A stretch of DNA of 64,000 bases, taken from the NCBI GenBank assembly GCA_963825525.1, contig CAWGTN010000002.1, forward strand, positions 64,001 through 128,000. The letters are read 5' to 3'. Position 1 is the stretch's first letter. The number at the start of each line of letters is the position of its first letter. Source of the DNA: an uncultured Chloroflexia bacterium (GTDB lineage: Bacteria; Chloroflexota; Limnocylindria; QHBO01). Shown here one piece after another: positions 589 through 61,888 of this stretch. The notes below the pieces were generated by a model. That model ran no database searches and was not told the DNA's origin. It was given only the letters and a program-made list of their open reading frames with translations. The translations under genes and the position numbers were made by a program.

Positions 589-1005
589 TCAGCCGCCGTA
601 CTTGAGACAGGCGCGCGCGAACGAGAGGAGGCCCTCGAGGGAGCGATCGTCCGCATCGCTGGTGGCTGTGAGCTCGATCTTGGGTTCCTGCGCGACCAAC
701 CGCCACACCGCCTTGTCATGGCCGGTGACCTCGTCGATCTGGGAGTCACTCTGGAGCCGCAGGCCGCTGAGCGACGCCCATCGGACCGCCTGGCCACGGA
801 GGATCCATGATCCGCTCGGATCGGCCCCGGCGGGCGTGTACGTGAAGTCGAGCAGCCCGATGTCCGTCGCCACCAGAACGCGCATGCGGCCGCTGTCCGG
901 ATGCACCCCGACATGCGCGGCGTACTCGTCCGCCCGCAGCTCGCCCATCTGACGCTGGATCAGGCCCCGGGCCTTGCCCAGGTTGTCCCACTCACCGATC
1001 TTCAT
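589..1005 (-). CDS. Hypothetical protein, 138 aa
   Basis: Clean ORF with globular composition; TAGGCT lies 8 nt upstream of the ATG. Confidence 0.7.
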   Translation of the reverse strand: MKIGEWDNLGKARGLIQRQMGELRADEYAAHVGVHPDSGRMRVLVATDIGLLDFTYTPAGADPSGSWILRGQAVRWASLSGLRLQSDSQIDEVTGHDKAVWRLVAQEPKIELTATSDADDRSLEGLLSFARACLKYGG

Positions 1006-1038
1006 GGCGGCGCAGCCTAGCAGTTGCGGGCGCGGTCA

Positions 1039-4000
1039 TCAGGCCCCGGGTGCCGAGAGCGCCTGCAATCTGCGGCGAGGCAGCGGGAGCCGGCCGACCG
1101 CGACGATGGCCTCCACCGCTTCGTATGGCACGGGCCGCGAGAAGTGGAAGCCCTGGCCGAGCTGGCACCCGCGAGCCTTCAGGGCGAGCAGCTGGGCCTG
1201 GGTCTCGATCCCCTCCGCCACCACCTCGAGCCCCATCGTGGACGCCATCTCGAGAATCGTCTGCACAACCGCTCCCTCTGGCTCTTGCGTGATGCGGGAG
1301 ATGAAGCTGCGGTCGATCTTCACGATGTGGAACGGCAGGTGACGGAGGCGCCCGAGCGAGGAGTAGCCGGTTCCGAAGTCATCGAGGGCCAGGCGGACGC
1401 CCAGCTTGCGGAGTTGGCGGAGCTCGCGAAGCGCGGCGAGGTTGTCGCCGATGATCGCGGTCTCGGTGATCTCGATCACAAGCAACCCGGGCTCGAGGCC
1501 GCTCTTGCGAAGTGCGGCACGCACGTCGGGAACCACGGTTCCCTGCGCGAGCTGCGACGCGGACACATTCACCGCGACGTGGAGCGGTCCCTCGGATGCG
1601 GCGTTCCACTCGACCGCGCGCCGGCAGGCCTCCCCCAGCACGAACTTGCCGATGGGGCCGATGAGGCCCGTCTCTTCGGCAAGCGAGATGACCTCGGTGA
1701 CCGGCACGAACTGGCCGTCGGGATCACGCCAGCGAAGCAGCGCCTCGAAGCCGGTCACGGTGCCGTCGCGCAGGTCCACCATCGGCTGGTAGAACACCTC
1801 CAGCCGCTCATCGGCGATGGCACGCGCCAGGTTTGCCTTGAGCTCGAGCCGGCGAAGTGCCTGCTCATGCATGCGTGCCTCGTAGAGCTCGAACCGTGCC
1901 TTGCCGCGCTGCTTCGCGACATACATCGCGAGGTCCGCGTTGCGGAGCAGCTCCTCCGGGCGAGCGGTTGCCTCGAGGTCCACCGCGATGCCGATGCTGA
2001 CGTGGACCTGGACCTGCTTGCGCATCACGCTGAACGGCCGCTCGAACGCTTCCATCAGGCGCGCCGCCACCGTCTGGGGGGTCTCGGACACGACGTCCTC
2101 GAGGAGGATCGCAAACTCGTCGCCGCCGAGTCGGGCCGCGGTGTCGACCGGCCGCAGGAGCCGTTCGAGCCGACGCCCGACCGCCACCAGCAGCGCGTCG
2201 CCGGCACTGTGCCCCAGGCTGTCGTTGATCGTCTTGAAGTCATCGAGGTCCAGGAACAGGACGGCGAGTCCGGCGTGCTCGCGGCTGGATCGGTCGAGCG
2301 CGTGCTGCACGCGATCGGAGAACAGGGCGCGGTTTGCAAGGCCGGTGAGCGAGTCGTGCAGCGCCTGGTGGCGGAGCTGGCCCTCGAGCTCCTTGCGGGC
2401 GGTGATGTCGTCGATGAGCGCGTTGAACCGCACGGTCTCGCCGTCCTCGACCGGCCAGATGGTCAGCTCGACCGGGAACCGATGGCCGTCGCGGTGCATC
2501 GCCTCGAGCTCCATCCGACGCGAGAGGATGCGGCCCTGCCCGGTGGCGGCGTAGCGGCGCATCCCGTCGTGATGGGCGACGCGCTGCTCCGGGGGGATGA
2601 CGAGCTCGGCAAGGTCGGCGCCCATGGCCTGATCACGCGTCCATCCGAACGTGTCCTCGGCCTGCTGGTTCCACTCGACGACGTGACCCTCGGACTCGAT
2701 GGCCACGAATGCCAGGCTGGCGGTGTCGATGATCATCCGCTGCTGCTCCTCGCTGGCGCGCAGCGCCTCCTCGGCCACCTTCGCGGCGGTGATGTCGATC
2801 ATCAGGCCCTGGAGGAGCGGCTGACCGTCGTCGCCCTCGGTGACCGCAACGTCATCGAGGATCCAGACCGTGCGCCCGTCGCGGCGGATCATGCGGTACT
2901 CGAAACGAGTCGTGGCGCCGGGATCGACGGCGGCGGCATCGGCATTGACCACCGACTCGCGGTCGTCCGGATGGATGCTCTGCGCCCATAGGAGGGGATC
3001 CGCGATCCACTCTGCCGGGGCGTAGCCGAGCATGCCCTCGATCTGCGGGCTGACAAAGTGCCACCGACCGGTGGGGCCGGGCTCGGCTCGGTACACGACG
3101 CCCGGCTGGCGCTCGACGAGTGATCGGTATTTGACCTCGGCGCTGGAGAGCTCCGCGGCCAGCTGCTGCTCGCGACGGACGGCTCGCTCGCGGTCGCGGA
3201 GGAGCACGCTCTGGCGAACGGCAACGGTCAGCAGCACGAGACCCATGGCCGCGACGTTGACGACGTTCATGGGGCTGGGCAGTGGCCTGAGGAAGTGGAT
3301 GGCCATGAGCCCCGGGGTGAGCGCCACGGCCGCGATCGGCATCGCCGAGCGCATGCGCGCTGCGCGTCGGGCGTATGTGGGGTTGTCGTCCACGGCGTCG
3401 GTCCAGGTCGCAACGCCCAGGGCGATAAGGACGATCCCAACGGACAGAAGCACCGGCGCCACGAGCGGATCGGACATCCGATCCGCCGTGGGCAGCGCCA
3501 GGCGGGACAGGAAGCCGATCCCGAGCGCAAAGAGGCCGGCCAGAACGACGAACGCACCGTGCGGTTTGCGCTCCGCGCGAACCGCGAGATGCAGGAGAAG
3601 GGTCGCGAGCATCGTCGCCAGGAAGAAGACGGCGTAGGCGAGGTTGATTCCTCCGGCCGGCGTGCGGGCAGCATCATGGCCGAAGAGGGTGATCATGAGA
3701 GACGCGGTCGCAAAGAAGACCATCGCGCCGTCGAGGTAGACGGCGGCCTCGTCTGTCCATGCGACACGACGCCGGATCGTCACCCAGTACGACGCGGCGG
3801 CGCACGCCAGCACGCCGACGAATGGAGCGTCGGATACGGCAGGGGTGGACACCACTCCGGCCACCGCCTCGACGTTGCGAATGAGCTCGCCGAGCAGCCA
3901 GAGGCCCATGGCCACCGTCATCAGGTAACGCACCCGGCGCACGCGGCCGGTTGTCTTTCGGAGGGCGAGCATGCCGAGCACGAACGCGAAGCCGGCAGCC

Positions 4001-4265: not shown

Positions 4266-5744
4266 ATGCCCGCCAGCACACGCACCGAGTACGAGACCGT
4301 CATCGGCATCGAGGTCCACGCTCAGCTGCGCACCCAATCGAAGATGTTCTGCCCGTGTCCGACCGCACCACCGGACGGTGGTGCCGATGAGCCCAACTCC
4401 CGGGTCTGCCCCGTCTGCATGGGAATGCCCGGTACGCTGCCGGTGATCAACCGGCGTGCGGTGGAGCTGGTGATGCTGACCGGACTCGCCCTGAACTGCC
4501 GGGTGGAGACGGAGGCCGTTCGGTTCGAGCGGAAGAACTACTTCTATCCCGATCTCCCGAAGGGATACCAGATCAGCCAGTACGCGCTGCCGCTGACCAG
4601 TGGCGGTCAGCTGGCGGTCCCGGTGCCTGCCGAGAACGGGGAGGTGACCGTCGGAATCACGCGCGCCCACCTCGAAGAGGACACGGCGCGGATGCAGCAC
4701 GCGGGTCGGGGCTACAGCGTCGTCGACTTCAACCGTGCGGGCGTGCCGTTGATGGAGGTGGTGACCGAGCCCGACATCCGCACTCCGGCCCAGGCCCGCG
4801 CCTACGGTGAGACGCTGCGGGAGCTCCTCCGGGCCATCGGCGCCAGCAATGCCGATATGGATGCCGGCTCCATGCGGATCGAGGGCAACGTCAGCCTCCG
4901 ACCGCGTGGCACGACCACGCTGGGCACGAAGGTCGAGGTCAAGAACCTGAACAGCTTCCGATCCCTGGAGCGGGCGCTCGAGTACGAGGTGGCGCGTCAT
5001 GCCGAAGCGCTCGATCGTGGTGAGACCCTCGTCCAGGAGACTCGTGGCTGGGACGAGGAGAACGGACGCACCATCATCCAGCGCTCGAAGGAGGAGGCGA
5101 ACGACTACCGCTACTTCCCCGAGCCGGACCTGCCGCCGCTGCGTCCATCCGAGGCGTGGGTTGCCGAGCTCCGCGCCGGCCTGCCCGAGGTACCCGCCCT
5201 TCGCCGGGCTCGCTACGTGGATGAGCTTGGATTGTCGGCCTACGACGCCGGAGTCCTGACGTCTGACAACGCGCTGGCCACGTACTTCGACGCGGTGGTG
5301 GATGCCGGAGTCGCGCCCAAGAGCGCAGCCAACTGGATCACCGGCGAGTTCAGCCGGCTGCTCAACCAGCATGCCGCGCGCGGCCTCCGTGCCGACGACG
5401 TCGCTCTGCGTCCCGAAGGCATGGCCATCCTCATCGGCGAGGTCGAGGAGGGAAGGGTGTCCGGCACGAATGCGAAGGCCGTGCTGGCCGCCGTGTTCGA
5501 GTCGGGCGAGGATCCGCGCGCCGTGATCGAGCGTGATGGACTTGGACAGGTCAGCGACTCGGACGCCATCGGTCGCGAGATCGAGGCCGTCATCACCGAG
5601 TTCGCCGGCCAGGTTGCCGAGTACCGCTCCGGGAAGCCGCAGCTCTTCGGGTTCCTGGTCGGGCAGGTCATGAAGCGCACCGCCGGGCGGGCGGACGCCA
5701 AGCTCGTCAACGCCGAGCTCCGCCGTCGGCTCGAGTCCGAATGA
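4266..5744 (+). CDS. gatB: Asp-tRNA(Asn)/Glu-tRNA(Gln) amidotransferase subunit B
   Basis: [61 protein letters not shown]. Confidence 0.98.
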
Positions 5745-8723: not shown

Positions 8724-9162
8724 GCGCGCGGCGCAGGAATCGGGCGACGGGACCGGAGTTGGCGTCGGGCTCCTCGCTTCGCTCGTGGACTCGCTTCCAG
8801 GCCATCTCCTGGCCGATCGCGACCTCGATTCCCGTCCGTTTCGGCTCCGGGTCGATCGGGATGGCGACGTGCGGGGCGCTGCGCCAGCGCTCGACCTCGG
8901 CAGCGGCGATTTCGTAGGCTTCCTGCCGGATTGCGAGCGATGCGAGGTCTGCCGGGCGCCCGGTGGCCGCGCGCCGCATGGCAGCGATCCATTCGTCGCG
9001 GACGGTGACGTATCGCTCCTCCGCCTCTGCCAGAGACCGTGGACGATCGGTGAGCGGGCCGGTGTGGGGTCGGGCCGCCTCGGTGTCTTCGAGCATGCCG
9101 TCCGCGGTCGACTCGTCGGACTGTCGGGCGCGGCGGGCATCGGCGGCGCGACGGATGCTCAT
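8713..9162 (-). CDS. Hypothetical protein, 149 aa (helical)
   Basis: ORF with ATGA coupling to the upstream gene; no recognised motif. Confidence 0.6.
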   Translation of the reverse strand: MSIRRAADARRARQSDESTADGMLEDTEAARPHTGPLTDRPRSLAEAEERYVTVRDEWIAAMRRAATGRPADLASLAIRQEAYEIAAAEVERWRSAPHVAIPIDPEPKRTGIEVAIGQEMAWKRVHERSEEPDANSGPVARFLRRALRR

Positions 9163-9647
9163 GATCGCAGCTCCCGCATGAGTGCGGCCATCTGGGCCCG
9201 GAGGAGGCGCGGCTGATCGACGTCCAGGCTGAATCCCTCGCCTTCACGCAGCGTGAGGAGCAGCCGTTCTCCGGCGAGCGAGGTTTCCACGACGTCTGTG
9301 AGCTGCACCGACATGACCACCTGTCCCAGGTGAACCATCCGGCGCGACGTGAGGTACAGAGTTCCCCCGTAGCCAAGCGCGCGTTCGTCACCCGGTCCCC
9401 TGAGGATCGCATGCGGGCGCAAGGCATGCAGATGCTCGTCCGCGGCGAGATGCGCAGCGATTGGCTCGTCGGCAGGGATCGTTGCCATCGGCTCCGTCAG
9501 CAAGCGAGCGCGGGCCTCGGCGGCAGCGACCTCATCGGATTCGGCGCGCGCGGCGGCCGTGAGGGCGTCACGCAGCGCGGGGCCTTCCTCCGTGGACGTC
9601 TCGTTCGAACTCGCTGAGGCGTCCCGGCCCCGCTCTGGCAACTGCAT
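9159..9647 (-). CDS. Hypothetical protein with PH-like C-terminal domain
   Basis: GGTLYLTSRRMVH is typical of bacterial PH/GRAM-like folds; TACCTT lies 6 nt before ATG 9647. Confidence 0.65.
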   Translation of the reverse strand: MQLPERGRDASASSNETSTEEGPALRDALTAAARAESDEVAAAEARARLLTEPMATIPADEPIAAHLAADEHLHALRPHAILRGPGDERALGYGGTLYLTSRRMVHLGQVVMSVQLTDVVETSLAGERLLLTLREGEGFSLDVDQPRLLRAQMAALMRELRS

Positions 9648-9680
9648 GCACGGAAGGTACCCCTCCGGACCTCGATCGGC

Positions 9681-9810
9681 ATCCGGACATCTACGGATCA
9701 CGGTACGGAGTGCCCCATCCGTATCCGGACGCACCGGTGCGTACACGCACCGGTGATGGGGTGGGGGTACGGACTCGCGAATCAGTACCCCGCTCCGTAG
9801 GTTCACGGAT
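9681..9810. promoter_or_regulatory. Cluster of TCCGTA/TACGGA half-sites (putative response-regulator boxes) upstream of the giant adhesin
   Basis: TACGGA at 9692, 9704 and 9768; TCCGTA at 9718 and 9794; inverted pairs ATCCGGA-N4-TACGGAT and TCCGTA-N4-CACGGA. Confidence 0.45.
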
Positions 9811-55189: not shown

Positions 55190-55873
55190 TCAGATTGCCA
55201 TGAAGCGAGGACGTGAGCCAGGACTTGATCCGGACCGATACGACTCCAGCAGCTCGGCGAGTTCCCGCGGCCGGCTCAGCGCGGGGGTATGTGCGCTCGG
55301 CAGCTCGTCGGGCTCGATCCCCAGCCGATCGCGCACGACGCCCCGCAACCAGTCCGGGCGGAAGAACCGGTCGTCGAGGCCGATGATCACATGGGTCGGG
55401 ACGTCCGGCCACGCGTCCAGCGGCCATGGTTCCCGCGAGGTGGTCTCCGACTGCGTCCGCTCCTTCGAGCTCGCCTCGGCCGCGAGGGCGGGCTCGACGT
55501 CGTGATAGAAGGCGTCGGGCTCGTCCGCCGGAAATGTCCAGCCGGTGGCCGTCCACATCTCGTTGGCGCTCTCGCCGGGGCGAGGGATCATGGGGCAGAC
55601 CAGCACGAGACGGTCGGCCTTCGCCAGATGGGCCACGATCGGCGCGATGTAGCCGCCCCACGACTGACCGACCACGATGAGCTCGCCGTCACCGCGGTCG
55701 CGCGCGATGGCGTCGGTCACCGATCGGGCATTGTCAGTCAGCGTCGCGTCATCGTTCCCGATCGGCAGGTCGGGCGCAACGGTGCGGTGTCCTCGCGCCC
55801 GGAGCTCCCGCTCGACGAGGTGCCAGTACCAGCCCACGTCGAAGGCCCCGTGGATCAGGGCATAGGTCGCCAT
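55190..55873 (-). CDS. Alpha/beta hydrolase
   Basis: LIHGA, GQSWGG, SAHTP.LSRP. Confidence 0.9.
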   Translation of the reverse strand: MATYALIHGAFDVGWYWHLVERELRARGHRTVAPDLPIGNDDATLTDNARSVTDAIARDRGDGELIVVGQSWGGYIAPIVAHLAKADRLVLVCPMIPRPGESANEMWTATGWTFPADEPDAFYHDVEPALAAEASSKERTQSETTSREPWPLDAWPDVPTHVIIGLDDRFFRPDWLRGVVRDRLGIEPDELPSAHTPALSRPRELAELLESYRSGSSPGSRPRFMAI

Positions 55874-56041
55874 CGGTTGCAGTCTCCAGCATGCGGTTCA
55901 AGAGTTGGACGCCGTCAGAGCCTGGTACTCATCGGCGCGTCTACACTGCCCGCCTGCACACCCGAGCCCGGATGAGGCTGGCAGAATCCGGAGGGAACAT
56001 CATCAGCATCGGCGGACTGTAGGCAAAGGAGGGACGCCACG

Positions 56042-56242
56042 ATGACCTGGGAGCAGGCGGAAGAGACCGCACGGCCGGTCCTGAAGTGCCCGCTATGCGG
56101 CGGCACCGAGTTCGACCAGGAGCAGGGTCGGATGGACAGCCGATGGGGCATCACCAGCCACAAGCTCGTCCTTCAGATCTGCCGGACGTGCGGCCTGGTC
56201 CTCCAGTTCTCGGCCGGCCGCGGGATCTTCGACTTCGACTGA
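56042..56242 (+). CDS. Small zinc-ribbon protein, 66 aa
   Basis: CPLCGG...CRTCG; AGGAGG RBS. Confidence 0.8.
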   Translation: MTWEQAEETARPVLKCPLCGGTEFDQEQGRMDSRWGITSHKLVLQICRTCGLVLQFSAGRGIFDFD

Positions 56243-56244
56243 GC

Positions 56245-56841
56245 GTGTTCGATCGGCTTCCGGGACCGATGCGCCGATGGCTGTACGCCGGTGGCACCCG
56301 CCAGGATCGGTTGCGTGATCCCGATGCGGTCGTTGCCGCCCTCCGGCTGCGTCCCGGGATGGTGGTTGCCGACCTCGGCCCGGGCTACGGCCACTTCACG
56401 CTCCGGATGAGCCGCGCCGTGGCGCCCGACGGGGTCGTCTACGCGCTCGACGCGAGCCGGACCACCCTCGACGAGCTTCGGCAGGCGGCCGAAGAACGAG
56501 ATGTCACCACGATGAAGTTCGTCGAGATTCCGCGTGACCGCCTGGTCGTGCCTGAGCCGGTCGACCTGCTCTTCGTCTCAGCCACGTACCACCACCTGCC
56601 CGACCCGGCAAGGTACTTCACCGAAGCGCGAGCGCTCCTGAAGCCCCGCGGGCGCCTCGTCATCCTTGAAGCGCGGCGCGAGGGCGTGCTCGCCCAGTGG
56701 CGTGGGCGGCATGCGACATCGCCCCGCCGCGTCGAGCGTGAGATGCGCGAGGCGGGGTACCGGCTCGTCGACACCCACGCTCTCGTGCCGGGCCACCTGT
56801 TCGCGGAGTTCACCGCCTCGCCGCCCGGGGATCGCAGCTAG
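56245..56841 (+). CDS. Class I SAM-dependent methyltransferase
   Basis: VADLGPGYG, VYALD, YHHL, LKPRGRLVI. Confidence 0.88.
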   Translation: MFDRLPGPMRRWLYAGGTRQDRLRDPDAVVAALRLRPGMVVADLGPGYGHFTLRMSRAVAPDGVVYALDASRTTLDELRQAAEERDVTTMKFVEIPRDRLVVPEPVDLLFVSATYHHLPDPARYFTEARALLKPRGRLVILEARREGVLAQWRGRHATSPRRVEREMREAGYRLVDTHALVPGHLFAEFTASPPGDRS

Positions 56842-59165
56842 GGGGACGGCGTCGGGCTGGGGGAGGGGCTCGGGGTGGGGCTGCTCGTCGGCGTCGAGGT
56901 CGGCCGGCTGGTCGGCGTCGCGGTGGACGCCGCTGAACCCGACGGCGACGGCGACGACGAGGAGGATGGTGTCGGCTGCGTCGTCGGGCTCGACGTTCCG
57001 GCCGGCGTCCCGCTCGGGCTCGGCGTCAGCGTCGGCCCCGGCGTTCCCGACGCACCGACGGACGACGACGCGGAGGGTGACGGCGTGACCTGCGGCGTGA
57101 CCCCCAGGATGGCGATGATCTCCGCCTTGTAGTCCTCGAACTGTGCGATGACATCGGCGAGGGGCAGCGTGGGGATGGTCTCGGCGAAGGCCGCGATCTC
57201 CTCCCACAGATCGGCGAGCGATAGCTGCTGCTCCTGATCGGGCAGGGAGTCGATCGTCACCACCAGCTGGCTCGCGACGGCTGCCGTGATGCACTCGAAG
57301 CACTCGTAGTTCACCGCCGCGCTCAGGTTCTGCGGGACGATGACGTCGGCGTGCCCGACGATGACCACGACCTGGAAGGCCACCGCGACGGTGACGCAGT
57401 CGCTGCAGCTCGCGAACGCGTACGCCTCGTTCGTGTTGAGCACCGGGTCCTCGCCGGTGACCCAGACCATTGCCACGGCCACGTCGTACTGGGCCGTGCC
57501 GTCGCTCGTGTTGACGGAGATCGCCTGGTTGTCTCCCGGGTCGGGCGGCAGCGGCTCGTTGAACGGGAAGACCCATGCGGGCTCGGCGGTACCACCGGGA
57601 TCGGCTCCGTCGCCTGCGCCATCCGACTCGCGCGGAACGAGGACCAGCGCCATCTGTGGCTCGTCCTCGGTCGGCCGCGGGCCGCCGTCCGACATGAGCG
57701 TCAGCACCTCGCCACCTCGGGCGGTGGTCGTTGGCGGCCGATCGAAGCCTGCTGCGCCCAGGGGAACATTGGCGACGCTGAAGATCGTCCCATCCTCGAA
57801 CGGGCTCACCGGGCGATAGCGCTCGGCGCCTGGCCACCACGCGAACGCGAGGGCCACGACGGCGGCGAGTACGAGCGCTCCGGCACCCGTGCGACGCACG
57901 GGCCGGCCCTCGGTCCGGCGCCACAGGCTGCGCACGATGCCGTAGACCACCCGGCCCAGGACGAATCCGATCGCCAGGATCGGGAGCGTCACGACCGCCA
58001 TCGCGAGAACGGCGCCGGCGGCATCGATGAAGGCTCCAGCCGCCAGATGCGCGCCCGCCCGCCCCCATTCGCGGCCGATGCTGTCGAGGGCAGTGCCGAT
58101 GATGCGCGGCGCCGCCAACACCATGGCGAACAGTGAGAACGCGAGCAGGGGCACCACGACCAGCACCCACAGGGTGACGATGATCCGAACCCACCACTTG
58201 AGTTGCGCGACGCGCGGATCGTTCCAGCGGCCCGGCCAGAAGGAGGTCAGGATCGGCCATATCCGCGAGAAGAGGTCGGGCACGCCGGTGACGTCGGCGA
58301 GGACGTGGTACCCGTCGAACCGCACGAGCGGGGCAAGCTGGCGGATCATCTGAAGGATCTGGGCGGCGATGATCAGGAGCAGCGCATCCCAGCCGGTGAC
58401 CCACCAGGCCGCGGCGATGGCGACGGTGACGATCGCGTTGAAGTACAGGCCACCGAGGTCGGTGCGCAGGCGGGCTGCCCGACCCAGGCGATAGGTATCG
58501 GTCACATCGGTGTAGAAGGCTGGCCAGAGCAGGAACCAGCCGGCTCCCATCGCGCCCGGTTGGGCTCCGCCACGTCGGGCCGCGGCCGCATGGCCGAACT
58601 CGTGGAAGCCCGCCGAGAGGATCGTGATGACGAGGACGAGTGCCAGAAGGTCCGGCTTGGCGAACGCCTGGTACGTCGCTGACGCCAGGCCCTGCTCGGC
58701 AAGGAGCCACCAGGCGATCCATCCAAACAGGGCGATCAGCGGGATCCAGGCCAGGGGATGGAACAGGACCGTGAACGGGGCGGTGATCCGACGCGTGAGG
58801 GCTGGATCGGTCACCGCGAACCGCAGCTTGAGCCCGGTCAGCGGATTGGACCGCTTCAGCTCCGGGATCGATCCATCTGCGCCGAGCAGCAAGCCGCGCG
58901 GCCGCAGCTGCTTCTCGGCGAGCGTCGCGACATCGGAGGCCGAGATCCGGCGGCCAGTGCGCTCGGACACGAGCTCCGCGATCTCCTCGTGGCCCCGCTG
59001 GCCGTCAACCGCATCGAGGACGGCGTACAGCAGGGGCGTCAGCTGGAGGGTCTGGCCGTCCTGCCGGCGGACCAGGGCGGGCGGTACGCGGTACCCCGAC
59101 CCCTCCATCTCGCCGATGAGCTCGAGGCCGTCCGGGCGCACCGGGACGTCAGCGACCATCGCCAT
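56838..59165 (-). CDS. PqqD/RRE-like + M50-type membrane zinc metallopeptidase + CxxC beta-repeat domain (YydH-like peptide zinc metalloprotease)
   Basis: N-terminal LTPLLYAVLDAVDG....EIA wHTH; FHEFGHAAA; PAFYTDVT; GGLYFN; PLVRFDGY; C-terminal NEAYAFASCSDC and NLSAAVNYECFEC repeats; S/T/P tail. Confidence 0.85.
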   Translation of the reverse strand: MAMVADVPVRPDGLELIGEMEGSGYRVPPALVRRQDGQTLQLTPLLYAVLDAVDGQRGHEEIAELVSERTGRRISASDVATLAEKQLRPRGLLLGADGSIPELKRSNPLTGLKLRFAVTDPALTRRITAPFTVLFHPLAWIPLIALFGWIAWWLLAEQGLASATYQAFAKPDLLALVLVITILSAGFHEFGHAAAARRGGAQPGAMGAGWFLLWPAFYTDVTDTYRLGRAARLRTDLGGLYFNAIVTVAIAAAWWVTGWDALLLIIAAQILQMIRQLAPLVRFDGYHVLADVTGVPDLFSRIWPILTSFWPGRWNDPRVAQLKWWVRIIVTLWVLVVVPLLAFSLFAMVLAAPRIIGTALDSIGREWGRAGAHLAAGAFIDAAGAVLAMAVVTLPILAIGFVLGRVVYGIVRSLWRRTEGRPVRRTGAGALVLAAVVALAFAWWPGAERYRPVSPFEDGTIFSVANVPLGAAGFDRPPTTTARGGEVLTLMSDGGPRPTEDEPQMALVLVPRESDGAGDGADPGGTAEPAWVFPFNEPLPPDPGDNQAISVNTSDGTAQYDVAVAMVWVTGEDPVLNTNEAYAFASCSDCVTVAVAFQVVVIVGHADVIVPQNLSAAVNYECFECITAAVASQLVVTIDSLPDQEQQLSLADLWEEIAAFAETIPTLPLADVIAQFEDYKAEIIAILGVTPQVTPSPSASSSVGASGTPGPTLTPSPSGTPAGTSSPTTQPTPSSSSSPSPSGSAASTATPTSRPTSTPTSSPTPSPSPSPTPSP

Positions 59166-59193
59166 GCGGCTCCTTCACGAGGCACGAATGCGT

Positions 59194-59224
59194 GCCGCGC
59201 AGGGTCACCCGAACCCCACGCGGC
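59194..59224 (-). terminator. Intergenic hairpin between the repeat protein and the peptidase
   Basis: GCCGCGUGGGGUU-CGGGU-GACCCUGCGCGGC, a 13-bp stem including G-U pairs. Confidence 0.6.
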
Positions 59225-59237
59225 GCCGTTGTCCGAG

Positions 59238-59963
59238 CTACTGGCTGATCTCGGAGTCCTGGTCCACGACTGCCGAGCTGTCGCCGTCGATCGACTGGTC
59301 GATGATCGCGTCCTGCACCGAGACGGCGGTCGCGCTCGACCCGATCGACCCGACGTTGGCGGCCACGGCTGCATCGATCGGGGCGGCCACGTTGGCGTTG
59401 GCCGCCACCGCACCCGCGATCGGCGCGGTCAGGTCCGCATCGGCCGCCAGGTTGACGTCGATGTTGAGCAGGTCGCCGCTCAGCATGTCGCCGGCGTCGA
59501 CACCGGTGACCGAGTCTCCGGCAACTGCGCCCGCAGCACCGGCCGCGTCGTCGACCGCGCCGCTGCCATCGGCGAGATCGGCGGTTCCGGCATCCGCATC
59601 GGCGCCGGCGTCGACACTGTCGGACGCCTGGTCAATGTCGCTGGCCTGTGTCGCGGCCGCCGAGGCATCGCCCACGATGCCCTGCGTGATCATCACGCCC
59701 TGGTCGCTCAGCGCCTGGGCGGTGGAGCCGGCGGAGAGGACATTCGCGCCCACTGCGGCATCGATCGGGGCGGCGACATTGGCGTTCGCGGCGACCGCCA
59801 GGTCGACCGGTGCCGCGAGATCGAGCGCAATGTCTGCGTCGACCTGCAGGTCGAGGATCGAGACGACTTCCTTGTCCGGAAGCGCGGTGACCTCTTCGGC
59901 GGCCAGCTCGTCCGCGGTCAGGCCCTTGGTCGGGTCGGTATCGTGAGAAGCGTTCGTGCTCAT
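59238..59963 (-). CDS. 241-aa acidic repeat protein with RiPP-like leader and two 77-aa amyloid-like repeats
   Basis: AAGGGGA RBS; leader LTADELAAEEVTALPDKEVVS; repeats share AVAANANVAAPIDAAV.ANV.S.GS.A.A.S.Q...I.Q. Confidence 0.85.
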   Translation of the reverse strand: MSTNASHDTDPTKGLTADELAAEEVTALPDKEVVSILDLQVDADIALDLAAPVDLAVAANANVAAPIDAAVGANVLSAGSTAQALSDQGVMITQGIVGDASAAATQASDIDQASDSVDAGADADAGTADLADGSGAVDDAAGAAGAVAGDSVTGVDAGDMLSGDLLNIDVNLAADADLTAPIAGAVAANANVAAPIDAAVAANVGSIGSSATAVSVQDAIIDQSIDGDSSAVVDQDSEISQ

Positions 59964-60206: not shown

Positions 60207-60752
60207 ATGAACCCATCGACCGATGTCGTTCGACGGGACCGCCCAGCGTCGGGTGCTGACCTGATCCGACGAGCGGGGTCCGGTGACCGCGATGCATTGG
60301 CAGCGCTGGTGGATGCGCACCACGCCGACATGCTGCGCGTCAGCTTCGTCGTCTGCGGGGACCGCGACATCGCCCGTGACGCTGTGCAATCCGCCTGGCT
60401 GCGAGCTGCGACGCGGTTGGGCTCTGTCCGAGATCACACCCGCGTGCGCGCTTGGCTGTGCTCGGTGGCCGCCAATGAGGCCCGGATGGCCGTCCGTCGG
60501 CGGCGACCGACTGTCCCGGTTTCGGCTCTGGACGACCACGTCGCGGAGCGCGGTATGCCCACGGCAGCCGCGTTGGACCTCGTCGCGACGCTGGAGAGCC
60601 TCGACATTCAGGATCGTCAGCTTCTCGCGCTCCGATACATCGCCGGCTTCAGCTCGACGGAGCTGGCGGACCACTTCGCCATCACCCCGGCTGGCGTTCG
60701 CAGCCGCCTGAAGCGCCTGCTCGATCGGCTACGGAAGGAGCTCGACCGATGA
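60207..60752 (+). CDS. ECF sigma-70 factor
   Basis: GDRDALAALV, ARDAVQSAW, RAWLCSVAAN, LALRY..GFS..ELA, VRSRL.R. Confidence 0.9.
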   Translation: MNPSTDVVRRDRPASGADLIRRAGSGDRDALAALVDAHHADMLRVSFVVCGDRDIARDAVQSAWLRAATRLGSVRDHTRVRAWLCSVAANEARMAVRRRRPTVPVSALDDHVAERGMPTAAALDLVATLESLDIQDRQLLALRYIAGFSSTELADHFAITPAGVRSRLKRLLDRLRKELDR

Positions 60753-61888
60753 CCGACCGATCACAACACCCCGACCCGTTTGAGGAGGCACTGGCCGCCT
60801 CGCTGGAGCGATACACCGCCGATGTCGACGTCACCGGTGACGCGTATGCAATGGCAGATGCGATGCTCGGGGTGCGCCGACAGCACCGCTTCCGCATCGG
60901 CCTGGGTGCGGTCGCGGGCGGGCTCGCCACGGCGGTACTGGCCGTGATCGCAATCGGTGCGCTTGCGGAGCCGCAACCCCAGGTGGGACCCGCTTCGACG
61001 GAGTCGCCCCGAGCGACCGAGTCGCTGCAGCCGACGGAGGGTTTGATTCCGTCGCCGGAGCCGAGCGCCGAGACGCTCCCTGGTGTCGAGGCACCCGAAG
61101 CCTGCGGGTTCCCGGAGGGCACTGGGCTCTCGTACGCGGGCCGCTCGACGACGGCCAGACGCGGCGTCCAGGAGGTCGTGGGGGACAAGTGGAGCTTCGA
61201 GCCCGCCGACATCTACATCACCAGCGAGAAACAGGAACAGGCCAATGGGATCCGCGGGCGGCTGGTCTGCGCAATCTTCGTCAATGCGGACTTCGTCGAG
61301 GTCACCATGCATCCCGAAGATGGCGGGCGGTTCTCCCCCGCCCCCGAGTCGTCTGTCTTCGAGGCGACATGCTCACCGTCCCCGACTCCCGCACCACGGT
61401 CCGGCGACGAGCCGTACGTCGTCACTGCGACGGAACTCTGGGAGGCGGGCCAGTGCGGAGACGCGCTCGCCAGGTACGGCGGAGCCGATCTGACCCTCGT
61501 GGCTTACCCGTCGGGCCTGAACGGGGTCGTGGATCCGTGCCCGTCCCTGGAGCCGCCCTGGTTCCAAGACTGTTCGGTTGATGCGGTGGTCTTCCTTCGT
61601 GCGCCGGACGCACCTCGAGACGAACTTGGTCTGGGACCCACGGCCGCGGCTGTCATCCATCCGGACCTTGGCGCCCTGCCGGACATCCGGGACGACCTTG
61701 GCCTGGAGCCCGGAGCGACGACGCTCATGCGGTTCACCGCCCACTTCGACGACCCGGCCGCGTCCGAGTGCCGGTACGAGGAATGGAACGGGGGTCTAGG
61801 ACCGTCACCGACTCCCGGTGAGGTCGTTGAGGAGTGTCGCAGTACGCTCGTCATCACGGCGTTCGAACCTGTCGAGCCGTGCCGATGA
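60749..61888 (+). CDS. Putative anti-sigma factor (single TM, Cys-containing extracellular domains)
   Basis: ATGA overlap with the ECF gene; short cytoplasmic N-terminus, RRQHRFR followed by a TM helix, P/S/T linker, HFDDPAASEC...ECR. Confidence 0.72.
   Translation: MTDRSQHPDPFEEALAASLERYTADVDVTGDAYAMADAMLGVRRQHRFRIGLGAVAGGLATAVLAVIAIGALAEPQPQVGPASTESPRATESLQPTEGLIPSPEPSAETLPGVEAPEACGFPEGTGLSYAGRSTTARRGVQEVVGDKWSFEPADIYITSEKQEQANGIRGRLVCAIFVNADFVEVTMHPEDGGRFSPAPESSVFEATCSPSPTPAPRSGDEPYVVTATELWEAGQCGDALARYGGADLTLVAYPSGLNGVVDPCPSLEPPWFQDCSVDAVVFLRAPDAPRDELGLGPTAAAVIHPDLGALPDIRDDLGLEPGATTLMRFTAHFDDPAASECRYEEWNGGLGPSPTPGEVVEECRSTLVITAFEPVEPCR

Follow-up and report, generated by a model that had tools for sequence, protein, structure and literature searches.

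The stretch of DNA analysed here (hereafter the window), 64,000 nucleotides (nt) of an uncultured Chloroflexia bacterium (contig CAWGTN010000002.1, positions 64,001 to 128,000), carries a pair of minus-strand genes, of which gene 1 encodes an acidic pro-protein with a conserved leader and gene 2 encodes a RiPP recognition element (RRE; RiPPs are peptides made by ribosomes and modified after translation) fused to a site-2/M50-type metalloprotease. The assignment of gene 2 is solid, and it is probable that the pair operates by leader-guided processing, in which the gene 1 product is captured through its leader and cut by the gene 2 product. Both open reading frames (ORFs) lie where an earlier note made from the nucleotide letters (the original prediction) had placed them, at 59238-59963 and 56838-59165, both on the minus strand, and all strings quoted in that note are present in the translations, namely LTADELAAEEVTALPDKEVVS (residues 15-35) in gene 1, and HEFGH (188-192), FYTD (217-220) and FDGY (283-286) in gene 2. 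Gene 1 is laid out as leader, repeat 1, variable linker and repeat 2, and the features of the pair are as follows, where AF2 is AlphaFold2, pLDDT its predicted local distance difference test score and TM a transmembrane helix.

59238..59963, minus strand: gene 1 (P0001), a 241-residue acidic Ala/Asp-rich pro-protein (ORF and translation)
59859..59924, minus strand: leader-like recognition motif, residues 14-35 (GLTADELAAEEVTALPDKEVVS; invariant residues, predicted contacts)
59628..59858, minus strand: repeat module 1, residues 36-112 (internal alignment score, hydrophobic moment)
59475..59627, minus strand: Asp/Gly/Ala low-complexity linker, residues 113-163 (variable, not alignable among relatives)
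59241..59474, minus strand: repeat module 2, residues 164-241 (internal alignment, invariant ANANVAAPI core)
59194..59224, minus strand: GC-rich 13-bp stem-loop within the gap between gene 1 and gene 2 (from folding)
56838..59165, minus strand: gene 2 (P0002), a 775-residue RRE-site-2 protease (RRE-S2P) with an extracytoplasmic domain (ORF and translation)
58866..59153, minus strand: N-terminal RRE, a predicted PqqD-like winged helix, residues ~5-100 (AF2, VIA-align)
58266..58805, minus strand: site-2/M50-type catalytic core, TM1-4, residues 121-300 (VIA-align; HEFGH at 58590-58604, FDGY with the Asp ligand)
57831..58196, minus strand: TM5-7, residues 324-445 (AF2 helices 324-375, 379-417 and 422-442)
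57090..57803, minus strand: predicted extracytoplasmic beta domain, residues 455-692, two CxxC hairpins followed by a helical hairpin (AF2, invariant Cys)
56841..57089, minus strand: disordered Pro/Thr/Ser-rich tail, residues 693-775 (pLDDT <50)

For gene 2, the AF2 model built on a 68-sequence alignment has a mean pLDDT of 76. The N-terminal region, in which the original prediction had recognized a PqqD/RRE-like winged helix, was indeed modelled as three strands (residues 15-19, 30-33 and 39-42) followed by three helices (44-52, 59-70 and 76-87), with pLDDT >90, and was aligned by VIA-align with a lasso peptide B1 protein with its leader (6jx3_B; Z 8.7, 82/85 residues, root-mean-square deviation 3.0), TbiB1 (5v1u_A; Z 8.0) and PqqD (5sxy; Z 6.9, 25% identity). 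The RRE-bearing proteins TigE, MibB, CteB, MccB and ThcOx were also matched, and RRE-bearing entries account for eight among the 50 matches listed, each aligned on residues ~3-103. The following catalytic core (residues 111-296) was aligned with the site-2 proteases SpoIVFB (8vjl; Z 8.2), RseP (7w6z; Z 7.7) and mjS2P (3b4r; Z 7.2), and the residues H188, E189, H192 and D284 are invariant in the 68 gene 2 sequences, which bears out the M50-type membrane metallopeptidase named in the earlier note. Among curated families, the NCBIfam daptide peptidase profile NF041824 (daptide_HExxH) matched gene 2 with 107.3 bits (cut-off 300; E 9.1e-31) over residues 30-298, corresponding to profile positions 19-289 of 379, and the YydH/LiaK profile NF058609 matched residues 175-293 with 30 bits (cut-off 225). 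No Pfam family matched gene 2 at E<=1, including M50 (PF02163) and PqqD, and a relative in locus L028 reached only E 0.096 to PF02163. The reading of gene 2 as an RRE fused to a site-2 protease is considered solid because the same two fold classes recur among the structural matches, the four catalytic residues are invariant and there is homology to the daptide peptidase. Seven TM helices were predicted, with six, seven and seven Lys/Arg residues in the predicted inner loops versus one, zero and three in the outer ones, which fits a topology with the N-terminus inside and the C-terminus outside.

The conserved acidic leader attributed to gene 1 was confirmed in an alignment of 48 relatives, in which E19, L20, E23, L28, P29, D30, K31, E32 and S35-L39 are invariant. 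The pattern LPx[KR][EA] was present in 109 of the 150 representatives of the gene 1 family, the remainder being mostly N-terminally truncated fragments, and in the relatives P0275 and P0305 a low-complexity stretch of 200-300 residues intervenes between the leader and the first repeat; the leader is a separable module. When residues 1-460 of gene 2 and residues 1-90 of gene 1 were modelled as a complex, both entered as alignments and accompanied by controls, the leader was placed on the RRE, as the original prediction had anticipated, with an interaction prediction score from aligned errors (ipSAE) of 0.68 (0.70, 0.66 and 0.68 in individual runs) versus 0.01 for the best control. The mark used for this score is passed by 58 of 80 solved complexes and by 2 of 110 mismatched pairs. 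Contact agreement across the runs was at least 45%, and the pLDDT of the partner was at least 46. The lowest-error residue pairs join leader residues 23-28 to RRE strand 38-43 (beta3); in terms of contacts, residues 22-28 of gene 1 are predicted to touch RRE residues 38-43 and 72-92 (the region of the third RRE helix), and residues 28-39 to touch the active-site cleft at 178-192 (including HEFGH), 211-225 and 272-287. The leader residues in predicted contact are the invariant ones. This controlled prediction supports a docking mode in which the leader would lie on beta3 of the RRE and reach the active site.

The two genes are also tightly linked in other genomes. The family of gene 1 is large, with 3636 proteins at E<=0.001 among 8000 scored candidates (64-89% identity for the best 120 of the 3636), and a library-wide HMMER search with the gene 1 profile retrieved 463 representatives clustered at 50% identity at E<=0.001, 337 of them at E<=1e-10; for gene 2, 8000 scored candidates yielded 3380 relatives at E<=0.001. 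In a synteny scan limited to one genome per species, 19 loci with gene 1 relatives were collected, five from Chloroflexota metagenome-assembled genomes (MAGs) and 14 from Actinomycetota, the latter including Nocardioides, Marmoricola, Microthrixaceae and the cultured Terrabacter lapilli JCM 15628. In 17 of these loci a gene 2 homologue (49-77% identity) begins 40-170 nt 3' of gene 1, and the other two end at a contig edge. Conversely, when gene 2 was searched in a 151-genome sample of the window's class, gene 1 was found upstream of all four full-length protease orthologues (G000, G017, G082 and G144), or of three out of three if the unpublished genome G144 is set aside. The association with such peptidases on which the original prediction depended thus holds in both directions. 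One copy of each gene is present in the window's genome. The gene pair is an accessory module: one draw of 41 related genomes included two with gene 1, and in a second sample four of the 12 genomes belonging to the genus counted as carriers. Apparent upstream paralogues of gene 1 in L008 and L014-L017 were discarded as Arg/Gly/Pro-rich shadow ORFs.

As for expression signals, a Shine-Dalgarno-like GGGGAAAC precedes the ATG of gene 1, and GAAGGAG sits 5' of the gene 2 start. The 72-nt gap between the genes contains the stem-loop listed above, and an equivalent hairpin with other stem and loop letters follows the gene 1 stop codon in four Chloroflexota loci (L003, L004, L005 and L007). A terminator scan made no call on this hairpin, which has no T-run, and a scan for promoter and terminator consensus sequences found no sites. 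The conserved hairpin fits a yield of precursor exceeding that of the enzyme, a bias to which it may contribute.

According to the proposed mechanism, gene 1 would be made in the cytoplasm as a pro-protein, and its motif ELxxExxxALPDKEVVS is predicted, in the controlled models above, to bind as an extra strand on the cytoplasmic RRE of gene 2. Binding would thread residues ~28-39 into the HExxH/Asp zinc site, which is located where TM2 ends on the cytoplasmic side; there gene 2, acting as an intramembrane site-2-type protease, would cut off the leader. The cut would fall within residues ~30-39, a placement made by analogy, because the daptide preprint (bioRxiv 10.1101/2023.03.08.531785) describes a site-2 protease with an N-terminally fused RRE that removes a leader with the motif ELExMEAP directly before the cut. 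The released product of ~21 kDa would be net negative and free of aromatic residues and Cys, and would retain two homologous modules with beta-type amphipathic periodicity and a hypervariable linker between them.

Several points weigh against this scheme. Gene 2 scores far under both curated NCBIfam cut-offs and has no Pfam M50 match at E<=1, the VIA-align Z scores of 7-8.7 are within the tool's range for common arrangements, and a Foldseek search of the whole 775-residue model against the PDB returned nothing at E<=0.001. Likeness to solved RRE-leader complexes may account for part of the complex score, and the fold of the partner is itself uncertain in the complex (pLDDT 46-47). All steps after binding are inferred; the module contains no transporter, and a strongly acidic protein of ~21 kDa is very unlike short-peptide cargo. 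AF2 gives gene 1 low-confidence helices and not beta structure, and modifying enzymes may be encoded elsewhere in the genome.

With regard to the product itself, the two halves of gene 1 align locally with a score of 193, against 62.6 +/- 8.5 (maximum 89) over 200 shuffles, in agreement with the two ~77-residue repeats originally reported. Ala makes up 25% and Asp 15% of the protein, and Cys, Phe, Arg, Trp and Tyr are absent. The description of the repeats as N/Q-patterned can be kept in so far as a few N and Q positions are invariant among the aligned relatives, but the protein is not N/Q-rich, with N and Q together accounting for 19 of 241 residues. The C-terminal residue, Gln in gene 1 itself, is Q in 116 of the 120 listed relatives and T in one. 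The N-terminus reads as hydrophilic and acidic in the translation, with no Sec-type hydrophobic segment, so that the lack of a Sec signal stands. In both repeats the hydrophobic moment peaks at 175-180 degrees, and over residues 34-68 it amounts to 0.5-0.7 at 170 degrees compared with at most 0.3 at 100 degrees; such a periodicity would place hydrophobic residues on one face and Asp/Asn/Gln on the other, as in amphipathic beta structure. The AF2 model of gene 1 (mean pLDDT 50.5; predicted template modelling score 0.19) consists of low-confidence helices and was too poor for a fold search. No family matched gene 1 in Pfam, NCBIfam or PADLOC, a Pfam row for Gasdermin (11.8 bits, cut-off 25; E 0.17) being noise, and a search of the ESM Atlas with gene 1 returned its own family only.

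The linker varies from ~20 to >250 residues among gene 1 relatives. In some Nocardioides-type relatives (L020:3594-5102, plus strand; P0247; P0250) it reaches 250-300 residues and is itself repetitive, with roughly twelve degenerate units of ~16 residues (...TGNVxDxxGxVxGTL...) that make up a second set of repeats within this hypervariable part.

The C-terminal domain of gene 2 carries four Cys residues (C587, C590, C622 and C625) that are invariant in the 68 sequences; its strands were modelled with low to medium confidence and its helical hairpin with a confidence of ~90. In loci L029 and L030 the protease ORF stops after a stretch rich in Pro and Thr (PT), and the four-Cys domain is found on a separate downstream ORF. 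These separate ORFs (L029:~3140-3941 and L030:~3190-3988, both on the plus strand) have a signal- or lipoprotein-like hydrophobic N-terminus and a PT-rich tail of their own. Because of these stand-alone signal-bearing ORFs, the four-Cys domain is taken to be extracytoplasmic and a separable third component, and together with the AF2 topology they uphold the extracellular position proposed in the earlier note. No known family or fold was found for it in Pfam, by a PDB sequence profile, in the Atlas or by VIA-align, where the fold was searched within the whole-protein model only. In particular, an ESM Atlas search with this domain gave nothing >0.77, and the matches from the PDB sequence profile search with the gene 2 alignment were rejected as low-complexity PT stretches only. 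One NCBI relative of gene 2 bears the name 'PT domain-containing protein'. Shorter proteins with the C-terminal domain number 216 at E<=0.001; the best 120 of the 216, many of which are on short contigs, include no distinct stand-alone family, and those with names are called 'putative peptide zinc metalloprotease' or hypothetical.

Once released, the product of gene 1 may end up outside the membrane, where it could encounter the four-Cys domain and, by associating with itself, contribute to the surface or matrix. This fate is judged the most likely one because of the hypervariable linker, the acidity, the lack of aromatic residues and Cys, the linked ectodomain and the conserved hairpin, and it is put forward tentatively and with some doubt.

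A more specific form of this idea, advanced in the original prediction, is that processed gene 1 is the subunit of a cross-beta or beta-solenoid fibre that polymerises on the C-terminal domain of the protease as a nucleator. Curli (CsgA/CsgB), Fap and the chaplins of Streptomyces offer an analogy only, by virtue of strand-like repeats, conserved N/Q, small residues and a linked extracellular partner. Consistent with a fibre are the beta-type periodicity of both repeats, the aromatic-free composition patterned in Ala, Asp, Val, Asn and Gln with its invariant N and Q positions, a hypervariable linker of the sort found in surface proteins, and a conserved extracytoplasmic beta domain that is tied to the system either by fusion or as a signal-bearing ORF; the intergenic hairpin would be compatible with a subunit in excess. 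However, the proposed subunit and nucleator are not homologous, unlike CsgA and CsgB, as comparison of the gene 1 and gene 2 families by hhalign detected no relation (probability 0.2%, E 0.32). No curlin or other amyloid family was matched at E<=1, AF2 did not produce a beta fold, and at a net charge of about -39 stacking would be disfavoured without bound cations. Curli and Fap also differ in that gene 1 has no Sec signal and that no dedicated secretion channel or other export route was identified here. A fibre nucleated on the protease is rather unlikely.

It is quite unlikely, too, that gene 1 gives rise to a bacteriocin-like, membrane-active product, which its leader would keep inactive until release and whose modules would insert into competitors in the form of amphipathic beta-hairpins or pores. 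Among characterised enzymes, those nearest to the protease mature membrane-active antimicrobial peptides (daptides, epipeptides and TMcins), and the patchy accessory distribution of the pair, the tandem multi-copy precursors at the loci with short precursors described below, and an alternation of hydrophobic and polar residues that is also typical of pore-forming hairpins would all agree with such a role. Yet the surroundings contain neither a conserved immunity gene nor a conserved ABC transporter, the product is large and strongly anionic, its core is 53-89% identical across two phyla, which is unusual for warfare peptides, and the Gasdermin match is noise.

Comparable doubt attaches to a broader conjecture, a Sec-independent route to a cell-surface polymer in monoderm soil Chloroflexota and Actinomycetota: a RiPP-style leader would bring the unmodified amphipathic-beta protein to the RRE-bearing protease, which would both remove the leader and move the protein across the membrane, assembly would follow on the four-Cys ectodomain or its secreted version, and the short tandem precursors would be a minimal, chaplin-like form. 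Like the bacteriocin-like role, this is improbable as it stands.

A further alternative is regulated intramembrane proteolysis, with the four-Cys domain sensing an envelope or redox signal and gating cleavage, and the acidic product working intracellularly, for instance by mimicking nucleic acids or as a sequestering factor. Site-2 proteases classically serve in signalling, and SpoIVFB cleaves a pro-protein that is not transmembrane (gene 2 was matched to 8vjl, SpoIVFB:pro-sigmaK); moreover, the RRE and the active site face the cytoplasm in the model, two invariant CxxC pairs are positioned outside the membrane, and a gene pair for an extracytoplasmic function (ECF) sigma factor and an anti-sigma-like protein is divergent in the window. 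This pair is not kept even in the closest relative, though, hypervariable low-complexity linkers and short precursors in tandem are more in keeping with a secreted product than with a regulator, and no DNA- or protein-binding domain was detected in Pfam or NCBIfam. This explanation is very unlikely. Finally, the database name 'peptidoglycan-binding protein', carried by the relatives P0003 and P0108 (NCBI MAG records) and by the three nearest Atlas clusters, is extremely unlikely to describe gene 1, which has no peptidoglycan-binding or other domain in Pfam or NCBIfam at E<=1 and no signal peptide, the label being without visible basis in this analysis.

Returning to leader-guided processing, related proteases appear to serve much smaller substrates. 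In the window's class, three proteases 37-42% identical to gene 2 (G128, G151 and G165) follow two or three tandem ORFs of 71-103 residues each:

L028:1339-2040 (minus strand), L029:789-1425 (plus strand) and L030:~660-1280 (plus strand): tandem short precursor genes, 5' of RRE-S2P proteases

The short precursors carry a leader of the form ...AAELPDREAMSL, with ...ELPDREAMSL in those of L028, L029 and L030, and a 40-residue Ala/Asn/Val core, VNANVAAPINAAVAANVLSDGSxAxAxAxQxAPIxQSN. This core is 34-42% identical to the centre of both gene 1 repeats, with shared invariant N, P, N, S, Q, I and Q, and none of the short precursors matched Pfam or NCBIfam. In view of the homology between the short core and the repeat centres, gene 1 is taken to be the duplicated, 'giant' version within a family of short precursors for which the same clade of proteases is responsible, and the module probably evolved from, or alongside, the short-peptide version. 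The short precursors of L029 and L030 additionally have a CxxCG motif in a longer N-terminal extension.

A fourth protease of this kind (G033) has upstream of it a leader-bearing ORF of 153 residues with a different, Asn/Gln-rich core; this ORF (L031:925-1386, reverse-complement coordinates) shows a leader-like ...AVDLPDRTLMDT and a Pro/Asp/Ser tail. Outside the class, two Streptomyces plasmids encode RRE-S2P homologues 36-43% identical to gene 2, preceded by ORFs of 70-86 residues with ...ELLPERAVLS or ...ELLPGREAL and unrelated cores. These small ORFs (L022:3515-3742 and 5413-5673, in two near-identical copies, and L023:5271-5483), with Cys-containing or Gln-ending cores, look like uncharacterised RiPP-type precursors. 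More distant RRE-S2P-like proteins (28-33% identity) are common in one family of the class, where 39 of 49 genomes have some gene 2 match. At L034:428-955, L036:121-615 and L039:22-564 (protease-oriented coordinates) a conserved protein of ~165-180 residues with the motif YLHEFCHYW lies 5' of the RRE-S2P-like protein and may be another HExxH protein.

Compared with known systems, the closest likeness is to the daptide peptidase MpaP/DapP, which also bears an N-terminal RRE on an intramembrane site-2 metalloprotease and is homologous to gene 2 over the RRE and the core (E 9e-31, residues 30-298). The daptide precursor MpaA is likewise encoded adjacently and has an acidic EL...E...P-type leader. 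The preprint reports that genes for a DUF-RRE protein, an oxidative decarboxylase, an aminotransferase and a methyltransferase co-occur in daptide loci (bioRxiv 10.1101/2023.03.08.531785), whereas the gene pair has no conserved modifying-enzyme neighbours. Gene 2 reaches 107 bits against the daptide cut-off of 300 and differs in its three extra TM helices, four-Cys ectodomain and PT tail. The daptide precursor has a core of ~25 aliphatic residues ending in Thr and the leader motif ELExMEAP, in contrast to the 241 residues, two 77-residue modules, Gln end and leader ELAAEEVTALPDKE of gene 1.

YydH, LiaK and EpeP resemble gene 2 as membrane M50-type HExxH proteases that mature a ribosomal peptide, and EpeP, presumed in a review to carry out both cleavage and export of its peptide, provides the only precedent found here for a module without a transporter (PMC10885120); the match of gene 2 to this family is 30 bits against 225, and no radical-SAM epimerase gene is adjacent here. 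With SpoIVFB, RseP and mjS2P (8vjl, 7w6z, 9j83 and 3b4r) it shares the core fold (Z 7.2-8.2 over 125-133 residues) and the HExxH...xDG ligands, and SpoIVFB also removes an N-terminal pro-sequence from a soluble protein. Unlike in these site-2 proteases, substrate capture here would be by an RRE and not by PDZ or CBS domains, PF02163 is not matched at E<=1, and no site-1 protease or anti-sigma partner is conserved. The RREs of lasso B1 proteins and PqqD (6jx3, 5v1u and 5sxy) have the same three-strand/three-helix fold, with the leader predicted here to lie on beta3 and to pack on the third helix, but the RRE of gene 2 is fused to a membrane metalloprotease and has no Pfam PqqD match.

The term 'undescribed system' used in the original prediction was accordingly an overstatement, as RRE-S2P fusions that remove leaders have already been described for daptides, and RRE-guided intramembrane leader removal is a known class of mechanism. 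A text search of the literature found no paper on this family, although it might be listed among the RRE families tabulated in the daptide and RRE-Finder papers. What is new is the large, repeated and apparently unmodified substrate, the family-specific four-Cys ectodomain, the autonomy of the two genes, and the link between short and giant precursors.

Concerning neighbouring genes, clustering of ORFs over the 19 loci and the window identified no further widely shared neighbour, including modifying enzymes and an ABC transporter. The earlier observation that neither is adjacent is correct in that none is conserved, but it overlooked an S-adenosylmethionine (SAM) methyltransferase gene (56086-56841, plus strand) that abuts gene 2 convergently and recurs only in the locus of the nearest relative (G017). 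Enzymes of the daptide MpaB/C/D/M type were not found conserved nearby, these families not having been searched genome-wide. In G017 the alpha/beta-hydrolase gene is located directly upstream of gene 1, and in the window it is found beyond the methyltransferase, downstream of gene 2 (window 55190-56841 compared with L004:5250-5885 and 9124-9699); because of this difference in hydrolase position, the block of gene 1, gene 2 and methyltransferase has been rearranged relative to its surroundings. Divergently from gene 1, the window contains an ECF-type sigma gene (Sigma70_r2/r4) followed, with a 4-nt overlap, by a gene for a 379-residue protein without a Pfam match (60207-61888, plus strand). These two genes were dropped from the system, as no related locus contained them.

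So far, RRE-guided leader removal within the membrane has been tied to one class of small peptides, the daptides, and the gene pair studied here is represented by thousands of relatives from soil metagenomes and occurs in two phyla, with harmless cultured carriers including Terrabacter lapilli JCM 15628, Nocardioides mesophilus and Arthrobacter sp. Leaf69. The family shows how tandem short-peptide systems and 'giant precursor' systems are related. If cleavage of gene 1 by gene 2 is true, RRE-mediated delivery would widen from peptides of tens of residues to proteins, and if export is also true, the pair would represent a secretion or maturation route that uses neither a Sec signal nor an ATPase.

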